Positions 2,874 through 47,509 of a stretch of 64,000 nt of DNA are shown piece after piece. The position numbers and the translations under genes are program-made. Below the pieces are notes generated by a model, which was not told the DNA's origin, did not search any database, and saw only the letters and a list, made by a program, of their open reading frames with translations. The stretch comes from a virus: IMG/VR virus record IMGVR_UViG_3300042898_002099. The stretch is one strand, 5' to 3'. Each line of letters begins with the position of its first letter. Position 1 is the first letter of the stretch.

Positions 2874-5543
2874 TTAGGCGCCGACTTCTTCAAACGACAC
2901 GCCACTTCTTGTAGCTACAAAATTCAACTGAATAAAGTTGATTGCTCTTGCAGGCTTGATGAATATGTCTGCAACAAATTCATTACGGTCTACAACCGAT
3001 CCTGGATTATTTGTGTCATCACATATTACTCTAAAGTCTGTAATACCACGACGACCTTGCACATCTCTTAAGAATGGTTCAACAAGATTTCTAAATTGAG
3101 CTCTTGTAAACGGATCATTAAATTCAAATAATTGGAATTTAGATGCTGTAGAAATTGCTTTTTCTAATACGATAAACAATCTACGAACATTGATACGATC
3201 AAATGCACTTGGTCTTGCTAATAGAGTTTTATCTCCAAATAACAATGTTCCTTGTCCAGGGAATGTTACTACTGGGTTAATACCTTTCTTGTACAGATCA
3301 TCTCTGTCTGTCTTAGTAGGTGAGAAAGCCAATTTAACAACATTCTTAATAACGCCTCTGTTATAGCCTGCAGGAGAGAACCAAGGATCAGCAATGTAAT
3401 CTGTTCTTGCAGCTAAGCCTGCGACGTCACCATTTAATGGAACATATCGATATTTATCATTGTAACGATCGTACTGATATTTCCAACCTGAATCCAATAC
3501 CGCAAATGAGGAACTTGTTAAGGTATCTCTGTATGCTGCAATTTTGCTTGCTTGGTTCGTAGTATTAACTACATCTACATATGGAGGAGATACAAATACT
3601 ACACAATCTCTTCTTGCTTCAGCAATACCAATAACAGTATTAACTACACCAACATTTGTCGTTGGTCCCATTGGAATTAAGCTTACATCAAACAATTCGT
3701 CATTACTAAACAATTCATATCCGGCTTGGACATTTCCTGCAGAAACAGATGAGCCTGTTACACCGCCGGTTAATGTAGTTGTAATATTTGCAGTTAATGT
3801 TGCAAATGTTTTAGCCGAACCTGTTGTTCCCCAATTTGTTCCTGCTATTGGGTGATCCAACCAACTAATATATCTAGATTGATTGTTAATCACATCTTTG
3901 TAATAGTTTGTAGAATTGTCAGAATTTTTAGCGTCTGATGCTTTAGAAATATATGAGAATTTTTCAAGTACTGTACCAGCAGTACCTGTCCAATTTCCAG
4001 TTGCATCTAGAACAATTACGTGTAATTCATCTGCAGAACCATTTCTAGCAGAAACCCAAGCCGATGTGCCTGGAGCAGAATTGAATTGGTTGGCATATTG
4101 CCAGCCTGCGAATGTATTGGAATCAGCAACCGATACTTTTAATGAATTTCCCAATGTTCCTGGATATTTAGCAATAAATTCGCCATATCCAAATCCGCCT
4201 GTGCTATATTCGCTATCATATACATCAGAGTTTTCAATTAATAATGCGTCAAAAGATACAGTTGCGTTACCCGTTGCGGTAATATTTTGCGAATCTACAA
4301 TAGTAACTGTTGGTACCGATGTATATCCGGCGCCTGCATTTGTTATAGTAATACTAGAAAGCGTACGTCCGACAGATGCTACAGCTGCCGCATTACTACT
4401 AATAAAATTAGAGTCTCCTAATACTGGAGTAATAATTACATTAGGTCTTGTTACGTATCCAGAACCACCGTTTGTTACGATAATTGAATCAATTAGTGCT
4501 TCTATTCTAGCAGTTGCGTTAGCAGTTGCACCACCTAAAAGATTATTTTTATTAATAACAACATTAGGAGTAAACGTATAACCACCAGCACCAGGATTAA
4601 TGATGTTGATACTGTTAATAATACCGTATCCTAAATTGGCTGTTAAAACAGCACTAGTACCAGTGTTACCATCTAAACGAGTTAAAACAATATTAGGTGC
4701 GGCCAAATAGCCGTTACCATTATTTGTAATTGTATAACCTGTAATAATATTACCTGTAATAATAGGATATGCTGTTGCTTGTCTACCACCAGGAACTAAT
4801 ACACCACCAGAAATTGAAATATTACATGCTGTGTTTGCAGGTCCAAAGTTTGAACCTGGATTTGATATTTGAATATCTTTTAAACTAAAGTGTATTACTA
4901 AATTTGCGCTGGCGCTTGTTGAATCTTGATTTTGAATAACTACATTAGATAAACTATTATAGTTATTTCCTACGTCTTGAACATTTATAGCTCCAATTCC
5001 ACCCGATCCCAAAACAGCAGTTGCAGTTGCTCCAGAACCACTACCACCCTCGAAAGTAACTGTTGGTACGGCAGAATATCCAAAACCAGAAGTCGATAAA
5101 TTAATTTCACTAATTCTACCAGTTGTTGATAATACTGCATTGCCTAATGCTCTTGTACCATTAGTAGGTGCTGCAAATGTAACTGTCACGTCTGCAGCTG
5201 ATATAAATGTATTTGGTGTATTGGTAATTGTTACGCCAGAAACTCTACCAGAAGGTGTAGAAACTGCGTTTCTTGCAACAGATTTATCTGCTACTCTGAC
5301 TAATTTTAAATTATTTCCATATGATAAAAAGTTTGCCGCTGTGAAAAAATAACCTGCAGTATCATCATTTGGATTACCAAATTGTTCTACAAGATTTCTT
5401 TCCGTGTCTACGGTTGTAACTTTTTCGACCGGTCCCCATTGAAAGGCTCCCGAAAATGCTCCAGCAGAAGTTGCTACCGCGGGAACAACCGTACTTTTAT
5501 CTTCCTCGGTAACTAAAACGCCAGGTGAAAGCTGAAATGCCAT
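2874..5543 (-). CDS. gp18: Tail sheath protein with ~330-aa repeat insertion
   Basis: LSPGVLVTEED, FQWGP, WFSPAG and FDRINVRRLF motifs. Confidence 0.97.
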   Translation of the reverse strand: MAFQLSPGVLVTEEDKSTVVPAVATSAGAFSGAFQWGPVEKVTTVDTERNLVEQFGNPNDDTAGYFFTAANFLSYGNNLKLVRVADKSVARNAVSTPSGRVSGVTITNTPNTFISAADVTVTFAAPTNGTRALGNAVLSTTGRISEINLSTSGFGYSAVPTVTFEGGSGSGATATAVLGSGGIGAINVQDVGNNYNSLSNVVIQNQDSTSASANLVIHFSLKDIQISNPGSNFGPANTACNISISGGVLVPGGRQATAYPIITGNIITGYTITNNGNGYLAAPNIVLTRLDGNTGTSAVLTANLGYGIINSINIINPGAGGYTFTPNVVINKNNLLGGATANATARIEALIDSIIVTNGGSGYVTRPNVIITPVLGDSNFISSNAAAVASVGRTLSSITITNAGAGYTSVPTVTIVDSQNITATGNATVSFDALLIENSDVYDSEYSTGGFGYGEFIAKYPGTLGNSLKVSVADSNTFAGWQYANQFNSAPGTSAWVSARNGSADELHVIVLDATGNWTGTAGTVLEKFSYISKASDAKNSDNSTNYYKDVINNQSRYISWLDHPIAGTNWGTTGSAKTFATLTANITTTLTGGVTGSSVSAGNVQAGYELFSNDELFDVSLIPMGPTTNVGVVNTVIGIAEARRDCVVFVSPPYVDVVNTTNQASKIAAYRDTLTSSSFAVLDSGWKYQYDRYNDKYRYVPLNGDVAGLAARTDYIADPWFSPAGYNRGVIKNVVKLAFSPTKTDRDDLYKKGINPVVTFPGQGTLLFGDKTLLARPSAFDRINVRRLFIVLEKAISTASKFQLFEFNDPFTRAQFRNLVEPFLRDVQGRRGITDFRVICDDTNNPGSVVDRNEFVADIFIKPARAINFIQLNFVATRSGVSFEEVGA

Positions 5544-44069: not shown

Positions 44070-44737
44070 TGTGTTTCCGGGAAAAGAACCTCATCCATAA
44101 AATTCATAAACACATCTTTATCTACTCCGAAGTTAATCATCATCGCAGGTGTATGTGGATTTAATTTTTGGTTCTTACAGTAATTGTTATGTGCTTCTTT
44201 ATAATTGTCTTTTGACTCTATACCTACATTATATAGGTAATAGTCTAGATTGTCAATAACCGTAGATGCTAGTTGATCAAATTCTTCTTGAGTTTGAATG
44301 TTTCCCGCCGCCAGCATATTTGGACTGAAAATGCGCTTAGCCCAATCTGGTAATTCTCTTGGTTTGTTCCAAGTAATTTTTGACATCTTATCCTGGTACC
44401 AATCATATGTTTTTGAGTCGCCAGTATGTGAGAAATCGTGGAATGCACCTGTAATTTTGTTTTGTCCGCATACTATGTCAAAACCAAAAATGGGGTCTGA
44501 GGAATTGTGATGCGGGAAGATACACATATGCATGACCCACATCTTTTTATGTTTCGTGGCATCTACAATCTCAATGTGTGCTCTACGAAATTTGTCAGAA
44601 GTCCAAATATAATTTTCCCACGTAAAATTATCAGACTCGTGTCTATATTCTGGCTTCAAATCTTCAGGTGTGTATGACTCTAATTTTTTAATAATATCTT
44701 TTGCAAGCTTGTTGGCCTGCGGCCACACTTCAATCAT
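44066..44737 (-). CDS. pcyX: Ferredoxin-dependent bilin reductase, PcyX-like
   Basis: RRAHIE, H.CIFP, PIFGFD, AFHDFS, RELPDWA..IFS and QK.NPHT motifs. Confidence 0.85.
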   Translation of the reverse strand: MIEVWPQANKLAKDIIKKLESYTPEDLKPEYRHESDNFTWENYIWTSDKFRRAHIEIVDATKHKKMWVMHMCIFPHHNSSDPIFGFDIVCGQNKITGAFHDFSHTGDSKTYDWYQDKMSKITWNKPRELPDWAKRIFSPNMLAAGNIQTQEEFDQLASTVIDNLDYYLYNVGIESKDNYKEAHNNYCKNQKLNPHTPAMMINFGVDKDVFMNFMDEVLFPETQ

Positions 44738-45263
44738 TATAATCTTTCAACATATTAATATTATGAGTAAATGCCACATTGGCTTCTTCGGCTAATGATA
44801 CATTTAATTTCTGTCTCACATTTGCAATTAGTTGTGGTAAATTTTCAAACTGAAACATTCTATTACTACCAGGTAATAATTTAGCTAACATTTGTCCGCC
44901 GAACATATCGCCCATATGTCTTACATATACATGAGCTAACATTTTAGTTGTATCGTCTTTAATTGTTTCTAAATAATTAATATAATTAATTGTTGACGCA
45001 TTTAACTTGCCACTGGATGCCCCATCGCCTATTAATTCATTGTAGTCTAATTCGATTGCTTTTGCTCTTTTAATATTGTCTATACCTTTAAAAATACCTA
45101 GTCGTGAACCATGCCACTCTAAATTTTGATACAGTACTAGCAATTGATACAAATAGTCAATATATTTGTCTCTGTCAACTTGACCTTTGAAAATTGATTT
45201 AATAAAAGGTTGCTCTTCAGCTTCCTTGTGTTTTTCCGAAGTTAATTCTTTTAATGTACTCAT
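44730..45263 (-). CDS. hemO: Heme oxygenase
   Basis: LKE.T...H..AE (proximal His) and AHVYVRHMGDMFGGQ motifs. Confidence 0.92.
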   Translation of the reverse strand: MSTLKELTSEKHKEAEEQPFIKSIFKGQVDRDKYIDYLYQLLVLYQNLEWHGSRLGIFKGIDNIKRAKAIELDYNELIGDGASSGKLNASTINYINYLETIKDDTTKMLAHVYVRHMGDMFGGQMLAKLLPGSNRMFQFENLPQLIANVRQKLNVSLAEEANVAFTHNINMLKDYND

Positions 45264-45868
45264 AAACCTCCCATTCCACCGCTAGGTGGCGGAAATCCCA
45301 AATATTGTCTGTGGTCATATTTGTAATCTCTATACTTACCAAATTTATCTACATAATGTAGAAACGCTTGTGTTTGTCTTTCGCCTTTGTATTCATCTCG
45401 CCAATGTGGTAAGATATCACCCTTGTAAACAATAAGATCTCCTGGTTCTAAAAAGATAGGAAAACGCTCACCTTTTAAATTATCAAACCAAATTTCCCAA
45501 GGTTCAGGATCTACAGAAATATTAACAGTGGTTGAAAATTCGCAACTTGGTCTATCAGTATGTTCTGTCATTACTGCACCTTTATAATATATCCTCGCAT
45601 AGGTATAAGTATTATAAAGTTTTTTACCTGTTATATCTTCCATCATTGGTAACATTTGTACAGATAATGTTTCGAAACAAGCCGCAGAATAATAAGCAAA
45701 ACTATTTGTTACTTGGGTATCACCAAACATAAATTTGTTTTCCTCACTTTGACCACCCTTCATATAAGTTACTCTTTTTAGTAACTCAAATTCCAAATCT
45801 AGATGTTCTACTAATTGAGGTTGAATTGCGCCTCTTACAACTTCATATAGATTGTCTTTAAATGACAT
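45260..45868 (-). CDS. 2OG-Fe(II) oxygenase family protein
   Basis: YARIY..G..M..HTDRPSCE, HWRD and Q.FLHYV motifs. Confidence 0.85.
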   Translation of the reverse strand: MSFKDNLYEVVRGAIQPQLVEHLDLEFELLKRVTYMKGGQSEENKFMFGDTQVTNSFAYYSAACFETLSVQMLPMMEDITGKKLYNTYTYARIYYKGAVMTEHTDRPSCEFSTTVNISVDPEPWEIWFDNLKGERFPIFLEPGDLIVYKGDILPHWRDEYKGERQTQAFLHYVDKFGKYRDYKYDHRQYLGFPPPSGGMGGL

Positions 45869-45881
45869 ATTATTCCTTAAT

Positions 45882-45917
45882 AAAAAAAGTAGGTTATTCT
45901 GTTACGAGGAAACCTAC
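45882..45917 (-). terminator. Terminal stem plus U-tract of the tmRNA coding piece
   Basis: GTAGGTT...AACCTAC followed by T7. Confidence 0.7.
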
Positions 45918-45935
45918 CGAAACCCTAAGCAGCGT

Positions 45936-45968
45936 TTAGGCTGCTAAAGCGAACTGTTCGTCGTTTGC
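45936..45968 (-). other. tmRNA proteolysis tag reading frame ANDEQFALAA*
   Basis: TAAAT GCA AAC GAC GAA CAG TTC GCT TTA GCA GCC TAA. Confidence 0.95.
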
Positions 45969-46062
45969 ATTTACGTTTTTTGCTTCTTCGGCCGAGTTAC
46001 CTCAACCCTGCGGGTTTCACATTCCCGAGCTGTCCACTCTGTTACTAATTGCCCTGTCGAAA

Positions 46063-46245
46063 CTATTCAGGCCCCTCAAAAAGATTTTTCCATCTGTCTA
46101 GTGCTTCGAAGTAGCTGATCCAGACACATCCTTCACATCCTCTACCACAACACGTAGTTGGTTCTTGTGGCCTAGGATAAAAATCTTTTTGGTGGACCTG
46201 GGGGGATTCGCACCCCCGTCCAGAACACCGTTCTCTTTGCTTCAT
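46063..46245 (-). CDS. Oxidored-like (PF09791-type) Cys-rich protein encoded across the tmRNA acceptor piece and intervening segment
   Basis: [23 protein letters not shown] matches the P-x-P-x-E-P-x-x-CC-x-x-GC-x-x-CVW-x-x-Y pattern; ATG lies 4 nt after the upstream stop. Confidence 0.72.
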
Positions 46246-46249
46246 ACAG

Positions 46250-46459
46250 CTATAAAATATTAGTTAAATCTCCAACATGCACATATCCATCAACTTTTAG
46301 ATTAGGATCGCTAATACACTCTAACAAGACATGCCTTTTATCAACATCGTCAGGATGAAAGTGTTTGACAACAAATTCATGTCCTCGATATTTGTCATAA
46401 AAAGGTTTGAATGGTGGTTTGTAAACCTTATCTAAAAATTTAACTTTTTGTGATAACAT
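46250..46459 (-). CDS. Hypothetical protein
   Basis: 69-aa ORF whose stop abuts the tmRNA locus. Confidence 0.6.
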
Positions 46460-46512
46460 ATTATATATTGTCTAGAATTGAAAATCTATTATATAGTTGA
46501 TCTTTTATTATA

Positions 46513-47166
46513 CTAGATCAACTTCCATTTCTTATATTCTGCTCGTAGCTCTTTAAATCCGTCGATCCATTTGTTTCGTTTTTCTACAAACACCAATGGC
46601 TTTTCATCATCTACTGCTATGAGCACTACTAATTGTGGTACTGGTATTTTAGTCATCTCTTCGAAAGCAACGGCATATGCTGCACATTGCATAAAATAAT
46701 CATGAATATCATCATGATGTTTTATACGTCTGGATGTTTTGAAATCTATTACTGACATTTTACCATTGTATTCACCTATACAATCTACAGTCCCTGCGAC
46801 TTCTAGATGATCTGAATATAATGGTTGTTCTAAAGCGTGAATGTTGTCAATGCTATGAAGTACCGGTTTCATATTTTGCCACATCTCAACATCAAACATA
46901 TTTGGAACAATTTCCTTGTTTAAAAGATATTGTTCACATAAGCTGTGAATGCGCGTTCCACGGCCAGCGGCCTTGCTAGATATTTTGTTTGCTTCTTCTT
47001 CGCCTACTCTCTTACGCCATTCTATAATTGCTTGTTTTTTAAGCAATCCAGTGACAGTAGTTACAGACGGGTATGCTTTACCCGATGGTGTTTCATAAAC
47101 ACGGCTACCATTATCAGCGGTAACTCGTTTTAGTTTAGGAAACTCAAGTTGTACATGATTAAACAT
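46513..47166 (-). CDS. PD-(D/E)XK exonuclease (Cas4/RecB-like)
   Basis: YPSVTT, RGT.IH, AGTVDC, IDFKTS and Q..AYA motifs. Confidence 0.9.
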   Translation of the reverse strand: MFNHVQLEFPKLKRVTADNGSRVYETPSGKAYPSVTTVTGLLKKQAIIEWRKRVGEEEANKISSKAAGRGTRIHSLCEQYLLNKEIVPNMFDVEMWQNMKPVLHSIDNIHALEQPLYSDHLEVAGTVDCIGEYNGKMSVIDFKTSRRIKHHDDIHDYFMQCAAYAVAFEEMTKIPVPQLVVLIAVDDEKPLVFVEKRNKWIDGFKELRAEYKKWKLI

Positions 47167-47509
47167 AAGGTTTTAGATTTGGAGGTTTCCATCCTTCGGG
47201 TTTTAATATTTTACCATCTTCGCGACGAATTACTTTACCAGTTTTATAGTCAATTTTATGCAGATTACTATCAGCAACTTCTTTCCAAGCGCCTCTAACA
47301 TCAAAGCCTTTCATATGACAATAACCTAGAATAACCCAGATCATATCCATACAAGCATCTAATTGCTCTACATCGTCTCGCATAACCGTTGCTTGACGGA
47401 ATTCATCATATTCTTCAGCAATCAAATCGCGATATAAATGAACATTTTCCTCACAAGGTTTTTGTTCGCACGCCTTCAAAAACACATCCACATCAAGTAT
47501 CATTGACAT
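47159..47509 (-). CDS. MazG-like / PRA-PH NTP pyrophosphatase
   Basis: LI.EEY.E, DA..D..V, V..SN..K and REDGKILKP motifs. Confidence 0.88.
   Translation of the reverse strand: MSMILDVDVFLKACEQKPCEENVHLYRDLIAEEYDEFRQATVMRDDVEQLDACMDMIWVILGYCHMKGFDVRGAWKEVADSNLHKIDYKTGKVIRREDGKILKPEGWKPPNLKPYV

Follow-up and report, generated by a model that had tools for sequence, protein, structure and literature searches.

What becomes of the segment that is discarded when a two-piece tmRNA matures, and can that segment be a gene in its own right? The question is raised by an uncultured freshwater T4-like phage, of which we analyzed a stretch of 64,000 nucleotides (hereafter the window), part of a 119,376-bp IMG/VR record (IMGVR_UViG_3300042898_002099) that is 69% complete and has 35% G+C. 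Spacers of two-piece tmRNAs have been treated as disposable, whereas the one in this window is a selected gene whose frame overlaps the mature tmRNA. We think it likely that this is a functional two-piece tmRNA with a spacer slot holding an Oxidored-like gene, which would be translated before the transcript is processed.

Anatomy of the tmRNA gene and its reading frame

A permuted (two-piece) tmRNA on the minus strand, with the tag ANDEQFALAA, is the sole RNA gene that ARAGORN reports in the window (45845-46282). The Rfam covariance model tmRNA_permuted (RF04321) matches it with 121 bits over 45936-46251, against a gathering score of 47, and beta_tmRNA (RF01850) matches the same tmRNA with 101.5 bits against 84. 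In the detailed ARAGORN output the 3' tRNA-like domain occupies gene positions 55-93 and the 5' domain positions 209-234, an order in which T-arm, acceptor strand and CCA lie upstream of the 5' acceptor strand. From these domain positions, the CCA end falls at 46190, G1 at 46074, and a 115-nt spacer between them at 46189-46075 (Table 1). The terminal hairpin, read directly from the sequence, is likely the transcription terminator of the tmRNA unit; a consensus terminator scan missed it because its 15-nt loop exceeds the length that the scan allows. Insertion of a group I intron or homing endonuclease into the tmRNA was ruled out, since the T-loop is intact and the insertion sits between CCA and G1 of the permuted gene; no intron family of Rfam matched within 45000-47500. 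No SmpB gene was found in the 69%-complete phage record.

Table 1. Features of the tmRNA locus, in positions of the window
Feature	Position	Strand	Remarks
Upstream 69-aa ORF	46250..46459	-	conserved upstream in L001, L002, L003, L283, L077
Permuted tmRNA gene, core matched by Rfam RF04321	45936..46251	-	narrower than ARAGORN 45845-46282
Acceptor piece	46190..46251	-	ARAGORN, Rfam; P2 5' strand with ATG in internal loop
60-codon ORF	46063..46245	-	ATG 46245-46243, stop TAG 46065-46063
T-arm stems in acceptor piece	46217-46213 + 46205-46201	-	
3' acceptor strand CAGGTCC	46200-46194	-	followed by ACCA 46193-46190
Intervening segment, 115 nt	46075..46189	-	predicted to be removed on maturation; ORF codons 20-57
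Spacer closing stem, 5' strand AAAAGATTTTT	46179..46189	-	doubles as K-D-F codons
PF09791 Oxidored-like domain, residues 24-54	46084..46176	-	invariant P..P..CCG.GC..CVW
Spacer closing stem, 3' strand AAAAATCTTTT	46079..46089	-	doubles as K-N-L-F codons; followed by leader
4-nt leader TGAG	46078-46075	-	between closing stem and G1
5' tRNA-like domain of coding piece	46049..46074	-	G1 = 46074
5' acceptor strand GGGCCTG	46074-46068	-	makes G3-U70 pair
Tag reading frame ANDEQFALAA	45936..45968	-	resume codon GCA at 45968; stop TAA 45938-45936
Terminal hairpin GGTAGGTT / AACCTAC, then T-run	45882..45918	-	read directly from sequence

An earlier note on this DNA had described a 60-aa ORF running through the acceptor piece, the spacer and the 5' acceptor strand, and each of these elements is found in the place assigned to it. 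Codons 1-19 of the ORF (46245-46063) lie in the acceptor piece, codons 20-57 in the spacer and codons 58-60 in the 5' acceptor strand. In other words, the frame passes through the T-arm, the acceptor strand, the CCA and the entire spacer, and ends as GGG CCT GAA TAG in the 5' acceptor/D-loop region. Its ATG is placed 4 nt past the TAG of the upstream ORF (46459-46250). As the note had argued, maturation would cut the ORF twice, by RNase P at G1 (46074) and at the CCA (46190).

The same note had predicted a match of the ORF to the Oxidored-like family PF09791. The Pfam HMM bears this out (residues 24-54, E=1e-11, 44.8 bits against a cut-off of 24), and it is the only Pfam match of the ORF at E up to 1. 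The spacer ORF is the one PF09791 gene in the whole 119,376-bp virus record. Alignments of phage and bacterial members (A1, A2) have an invariant or nearly invariant core, P..P..CCG.GC..CVW. AlphaFold2, with 106 homologues, gives a pLDDT of 46-56 for residues 1-20 and 81-93 for residues 21-60, with a helix at residues 41-56; the model thus predicts a disordered head and, with confidence, a folded remainder. The head and the tail of the protein are mere translation of RNA-constrained sequence.

Comparison beyond these sequences gave few leads. A Foldseek search of the AlphaFold2 model against the PDB returned no match, PHROGs has no family for the 60-aa ORF or for the upstream 69-aa ORF, and among 50,697 phage records BLASTN and TBLASTN found no cultured relative, just short T-arm matches and one chance hit. 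The sole solved PF09791 relative is an accessory subunit of complex I of Chaetomium thermophilum (PDB 7ZM7 chain o, E=9e-7), designated 'Ct-NDUFV3' and located at the NADH-oxidising tip of the complex (PMC9699679). The phage protein has the core P..P..CCG.GC..CVW..Y..A...W in common with members from Burkholderiales and Rhodocyclales, with human OXLD1 and with Ct-NDUFV3, and phage members are similarly small to the bacterial ones, which are free-standing. However, the phage copy lacks an N-terminal helical region of its own, and its N- and C-termini are translated tRNA-like sequence. The leads to function are four invariant cysteines, the coupling of the gene to a WCGPC thioredoxin in close relatives, and the Ct-NDUFV3 structure. 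A metal or redox role is plausible given the cysteines and the thioredoxin coupling, but functional equivalence cannot be claimed because PF09791 is a family without an assigned function.

Selection on the protein and on the RNA

A scan of IMG/VR with the 60-aa product gave 131 relatives, from which 80 loci were kept for analysis. Half of these (40 of 80) carry the full ORF, at 61-100% identity and always inside a permuted tmRNA. Their Oxidored spacers measure 115 or 109 nt, the difference being an in-frame 6-nt indel. Selection was analyzed on 31 unique coding sequences, with parsimony steps counted on a tree. Within the spacer codons the steps at positions 1, 2 and 3 number 24, 30 and 114 (chi-square p=2e-20), so that third-position changes exceed first- and second-position changes about fourfold; the 19 codons in the tRNA-like domain yield 13, 19 and 16 (p=0.57). 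The Nei-Gojobori (NG86) dN/dS is 0.14 in the ORF frame versus 1.74 and 0.89 in the other two. Conservation of the frame and a dN/dS below 1, which the earlier note had put forward as a check, are thus both observed.

Structural constraint on RNA cannot give rise to a three-base periodicity. The pattern of changes indicates that the spacer is under protein-level selection, restricted to the spacer codons. Stops, frameshifts or loss of the cysteine motif in homologues had been named as evidence that would speak against a coding gene. One copy (P0011, on one contig) is frameshifted; every other copy is intact, and the cysteines and the P..P..CCG.GC..CVW core are invariant among relatives.

The RNA has left its own record. 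RNAalifold on 19 Oxidored-bearing loci reveals compensatory pairs in the T-arm (GC/AU 11:8; GC/CG/AU 13:5:1), in P2 (GC/AU 13:6) and in the spacer closing stem (UA/AU 11:8; CG/UA/UG 8:6:5). The acceptor stem is invariant in these loci, including the third-position U-G that constitutes the G3-U70 alanine identity pair. Tags remain of the ANDxxFALAA type in relatives, and related tags occur in 60 loci. The covarying helices, the invariant acceptor stem and the kept tags, taken together with the coding signature, imply that RNA and protein are both selected at one locus, and by these signs the tmRNA looks functional.

The spacer as a slot for exchangeable genes

Throughout the family the spacers follow one layout. 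A closing stem of 5-14 bp, which covaries, has one strand right after the CCA and the other separated from G1 by a 4-nt leader, TGAT or TGAG. An acceptor-end pattern scan yielded 104 unique spacers of 30-342 nt; a further one of 1956 nt stands apart, and there the simple pattern search may have paired the wrong G1. Many spacers combine AAGGA in the 5' strand of the stem with a small ORF and an ATG that lies 11-15 nt past the CCA. The cargo comprises hydrophobic peptides of 23-41 residues, CPxC...HKC mini-proteins, and ORFs of 35-101 codons; several of these ORFs use the TGA in the TGAT leader as their stop. Many tmRNAs in the family lack cargo. Two other cargo classes have enough variants for analysis, and their pN/pS of 0.24 and 0.23, against 1.2-4.5 in the other frames, points to purifying selection on both. 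The premise from which the earlier note had started, that spacers of two-piece tmRNAs are normally short and non-coding, does not describe this phage family, in which the spacer is a recombining slot that often contains small ORFs.

Spacers with the Oxidored gene do not group together on the tmRNA tree but are scattered among other cargo, a distribution that takes at least 5 changes. The tmRNA body of L077 is almost identical to that of the window and encloses an unrelated 87-nt spacer, the similarity breaking within the closing stem on both sides. Near-identical bodies with different spacers, together with the scatter of the Oxidored spacer on the tree, indicate that spacers are exchanged as cassettes. 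The ribosome-binding site and start codon that self-contained cargo genes possess were not found for the Oxidored gene in any of its 31 unique coding sequences, and since it has no start within the spacer, the gene uses the slot but not the slot's built-in expression signals. Where free-standing copies start with M-Y-P-x-P, the spacer copy has F-Y-P, and the closing stem stands at the position of the lost ATG. Among the other spacers, those of L056, L057 and L199 (~284 nt) contain an 87-codon cysteine-rich ORF with several CxxC-like motifs; this tmRNA is missed by ARAGORN and found by RF04321 at 83 bits.

Related phages preserve other arrangements of the same genes. In L283 the order is MazG, PD-(D/E)XK nuclease, 69-aa ORF, thioredoxin, free-standing Oxidored gene, tmRNA; thioredoxin stop and Oxidored ATG share the overlap ATGA, and the Oxidored stop TGA in turn overlaps the ATG of the tmRNA. 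In L003, whose ORF is 97% identical to that of the window and whose neighbours are alike, the Oxidored domain is in the spacer and the thioredoxin gene ends in an ATGA overlap with the ATG in the acceptor piece, 55 nt before the CCA end, hereafter ATG(-55). This 82-aa thioredoxin (WCGPC), which lies between the 69-aa ORF and the tmRNA in L003, is missing from the window (46246-46260 compared with L003:2990-3004), where the 69-aa ORF comes directly before the ATG. The motif ATTTTAT at both junctions suggests that the thioredoxin gene was lost by microhomology deletion. We propose that the Oxidored gene was probably once free-standing upstream of the tmRNA, and thioredoxin-coupled as in sister phages, and would have lost its own ATG on entering the slot.

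In distant tmRNA lineages the Oxidored gene is directly upstream of the acceptor piece, either ending within the first bases of the tmRNA (L041, L283/L284, L285/L286) or reading through the T-arm and CCA (L042, P0013, P0018). Phage copies without a nearby tmRNA also occur (L043, L287). Of 167 tmRNA contexts, 30 have an Oxidored gene, all in the spacer, and 137 have none in the flanks examined; the linkage of the two genes is recurrent in these sequences, not obligatory. The bacterial homologues, of about 75 aa, are mostly from Burkholderiales and Rhodocyclales, and no tRNA or tmRNA was found within 1.5 kb of the PF09791 gene at 80 bacterial loci. The nested layout was thus not found in bacteria at that depth, and we reject a bacterial origin for it.

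Several further features of these neighbourhoods were seen. Upstream in the window are the PD-(D/E)XK nuclease and a MazG-like pyrophosphatase; a hairpin, GTTGATC...GATCAAC (46489-46515, minus strand), overlaps the stop of the nuclease gene, and between it and the 69-aa ORF lie boxes resembling TATATAAT. This hairpin and these boxes may be a terminator and a promoter belonging to the unit of 69-aa ORF and tmRNA. Directly downstream of the tmRNA terminator (44730-45868, minus strand) are a 202-aa ORF with no Pfam match and a heme oxygenase (PF01126). At L282:230-814 a free-standing Oxidored gene enters the 5' part of a tmRNA, which breaks off after TTCTGGAC at the point where a 178-aa gene starts on the other strand; an insertion may have disrupted the T-arm region there. 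At L285:1053-1700 a SegE-like GIY-YIG homing-endonuclease gene (faint Pfam match) lies directly downstream of a tmRNA with an upstream Oxidored gene; it is a possible driver of local rearrangements.

A proposed double role of one transcript, as messenger and as tmRNA

If the spacer ORF is translated, there is little choice as to where translation can begin. In all 31 unique coding sequences, the stretch from codon 2 to the first cysteine is free of in-frame ATG, GTG and TTG, and near-cognate start codons in the spacer are not conserved between subtypes of this set. The sole available start is ATG(-55). It sits in an internal loop of P2, a helix that cannot form until its other strand has been transcribed, about 190 nt further on. 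No Shine-Dalgarno sequence is found at this ATG. It is present, with the frame open to the CCA, in 25 of 26 Oxidored contexts, and also in 42 of 84 contexts without the Oxidored gene. We rejected it as specific evidence of a start, because it goes with the tmRNA clade and not with the cargo (an independent-pairs test on the tree gave no link to cargo), and its presence is thus no proof of its use. Synteny, with the ATGA overlap of the thioredoxin gene and this ATG in L003, is better evidence. Judging from these sequences, we lean towards initiation at ATG(-55), and translation of the Oxidored domain itself appears highly probable.

In one lineage (L014, P0005, P0014) ACG replaces this ATG and the frame is open for 21 further codons upstream. 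This extension has 4 non-synonymous changes to 1 synonymous change and no sign of coding, and it speaks neither for nor against translation from farther upstream. A promoter scan found no consensus sigma-70 site on the minus strand beside the tmRNA of the window. In other relatives a near-consensus promoter, TTGACT-17-TATAAT, ends some 15 nt ahead of the ATG, so that the leader would be roughly 8 nt long. The -55 frame often stops within a few nt of the ATG of other cargo. The same is seen equally in spacers without cargo, and 8 of 37 such frames have just 2 codons; we make no claim of coupling between a leader ORF and the other cargo genes.

We propose the following sequence of events. The unprocessed or nascent transcript is probably translated from the AUG 55 nt before the CCA end, at a time when P2 would be unable to pair because the coding piece has yet to be transcribed. 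The ribosome would traverse the T-arm and CCA, then the spacer with its closing stem and loop, and finally the 5' acceptor strand. The product would be a folded domain of 35-40 residues, preceded by about 20 disordered residues and followed by 3 more, both of these ends being derived from tRNA-like sequence. RNase P cleavage at G1 and trimming to the CCA would then yield the two tmRNA pieces and destroy the message, whereas cleavage at G1 alone would leave a non-stop message. In other words, each transcript would be a messenger first and a tmRNA after, irreversibly. The earlier note had called protein and mature tmRNA mutually exclusive. On our reading the two would instead be sequential, since translation can be followed by processing and never the reverse.

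On the most economical reading, the locus carries a cargo gene in a spacer that is permissive, well transcribed and later discarded. This reading nevertheless demands that ribosomes unwind a G+C-rich T-arm and an 11-bp stem, and the putative start is clade-wide, without a Shine-Dalgarno sequence, and changed to ACG in one lineage, while one ORF copy is frameshifted. The lack of a start codon of its own and of a Shine-Dalgarno sequence, the ACG lineage and the frameshifted copy would also fit an untranslated relic, a captured gene fragment kept merely as spacer RNA. We consider this very improbable, given the roughly fourfold third-position excess, a dN/dS of 0.14 that holds down to 61% identity, invariant cysteines, an indel in frame, and a three-base periodicity beyond RNA constraint. 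The converse, that decaying tRNA-like halves which no longer form a mature tmRNA surround an ordinary small gene, has in its favour the lack of an SmpB gene in the 69%-complete record, and is in our view likewise very improbable: the Rfam scores are far over the gathering thresholds, the T-arm, P2 and closing stem have compensatory changes, G3-U70 is invariant, the resume codon and ALAA-type tags are conserved, and the same body occurs with many other spacers. Both the relic ORF and the dead tmRNA are contradicted by the coding signature and the RNA covariation.

Two further explanations would give the nesting a purpose. The arrangement could be a selected switch in which the contest of ribosomes with RNase P and 3' trimming serves as a sensor, poor initiation giving tmRNA and good initiation giving the cysteine protein; cleavage at G1 first could add a feedback loop, in which the product of the non-stop message is tagged by tmRNA. 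The geometry does make a competition between ribosome and processing unavoidable, the Oxidored ORF, unlike most cargo, has no start of its own and relies on an AUG inside the mature acceptor piece, and the gene overlaps the tmRNA in three different arrangements. Against this, the same slot has many unrelated ORFs with their own ribosome-binding sites, which fits hitch-hiking, the ATG is not specifically tied to the Oxidored gene on the tree, many tmRNAs of the family are cargo-free, and a regulatory element was not found at the locus; we regard a selected switch as unlikely. Alternatively, the linkage may reflect a partnership in which the Oxidored-like protein aids phage tmRNA or trans-translation as a cofactor or modulator. 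The gene does adjoin or overlap tmRNAs of different lineages, upstream or inside (L041, L042, L283-L286, L282), in a phage whose partial record lacks SmpB. However, this is improbable in view of the 137 of 167 tmRNA contexts without an Oxidored gene, the free-standing phage copies without a tmRNA, the bacterial homologues with none within 1.5 kb, the coupling of the gene to thioredoxin, and a sole solved relative that belongs to respiratory complex I. None of our findings requires either the switch or the partnership.

Read as cargo in a functional tmRNA, the locus extends what is known of two-piece tmRNAs in phages. These have been described in aquatic T4-like myophages, the OM43 phage Melnitz and pelagimyophages, and the ssrA of Melnitz has a glutamine riboswitch in its 3' domain (PMC9004378). 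The locus follows the tmRNAs of Melnitz and pelagimyophages, and those of betaproteobacteria (RF01850, RF04321; PMC11915505), in its order of acceptor piece, spacer and coding piece, in a tRNA-Ala-like domain with G3-U70, and in an ANDxxFALAA-type tag; like the former it belongs to an aquatic T4-like phage with no SmpB in the sequenced part of its record. It differs from all of them in having a spacer that codes for protein, in a frame that reaches into the two mature pieces. In the literature searched we found no published description of a coding tmRNA spacer. A 2025 tmRNA database lists 11,946 permuted genes, but with 79 phage sequences, and inside spacers it records just one tRNA-Ala gene and a repeat element, with no ORF (PMC11915505).

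Genes within removed RNA segments have precedents elsewhere. The 23S rRNA intervening sequences of Leptospira and Coxiella encode proteins, and the dual-function RNAs SgrS/SgrT and RNAIII/hld combine a coding and a non-coding role. Homing-endonuclease genes sit in group I introns of tmRNA and tRNA genes (PMC11915505). As with the intron and intervening-sequence genes, the phage gene lies in a removed segment and the precursor would double as message. However, at the phage locus there is neither intron nor splicing to join the two RNA pieces, which would remain apart; its cargo is no selfish nuclease, and the ORF is not self-contained, since it starts and stops in mature RNA. With SgrS/SgrT and RNAIII/hld the phage RNA has in common that one transcript would take both roles; there they reside on the same mature molecule, whereas here maturation would destroy the message, so that the roles are successive in time.

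The locus thus offers a natural system in which translation and the maturation of a stable RNA would compete for the same molecule. A stronger proposal is that the pre-tmRNA is a bifunctional RNA with kinetic partitioning and a feedback loop, its spacer being a dedicated, recombining expression slot for small genes. We consider this proposal as a whole doubtful; if it were true, ribosomes that begin at the AUG in the acceptor piece would open up the tRNA-like domain and so hold back RNase P and 3' trimming, the ratio of redox/metal mini-protein to rescue RNA would be set by the translational state of the infected cell, and cleavage at G1 first would give a non-stop mRNA whose product is tagged by the transcript's own tmRNA. 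There are also practical consequences. A pipeline that annotates the tmRNA will hide the gene, and vice versa. The recombining slot, with its membrane peptides, cysteine-rich mini-proteins and ORFs to about 100 codons, may be an unrecognised reservoir of small phage proteins that would be co-expressed with the tmRNA. PF09791, a family that extends from bacteria to human mitochondria, gains a compact phage member with a link to thioredoxin.

Some tmRNAs of the collection are unusual in other respects. L066 and L067 have a 116-nt spacer, after position 3056, that contains a tRNA-like T-arm, GGTTCGAATCC, with no ORF and no ARAGORN tRNA; one earlier report places a tRNA-Ala within a tmRNA spacer (PMC11915505). 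The tmRNAs of L008, L013, L048 and L049, and that at L042:3427-3510, encode tags of 27 residues, not the 10-residue ANDxxFALAA; examples start ANVNKT or AKANTT and end ALAV or SLAV, and some are on contigs of ~340-350 kb. At L060:4098-4174, about 1 kb from a cargo-bearing tmRNA, is a tRNA with a CUA anticodon (labelled Pyl by ARAGORN), a potential amber suppressor.
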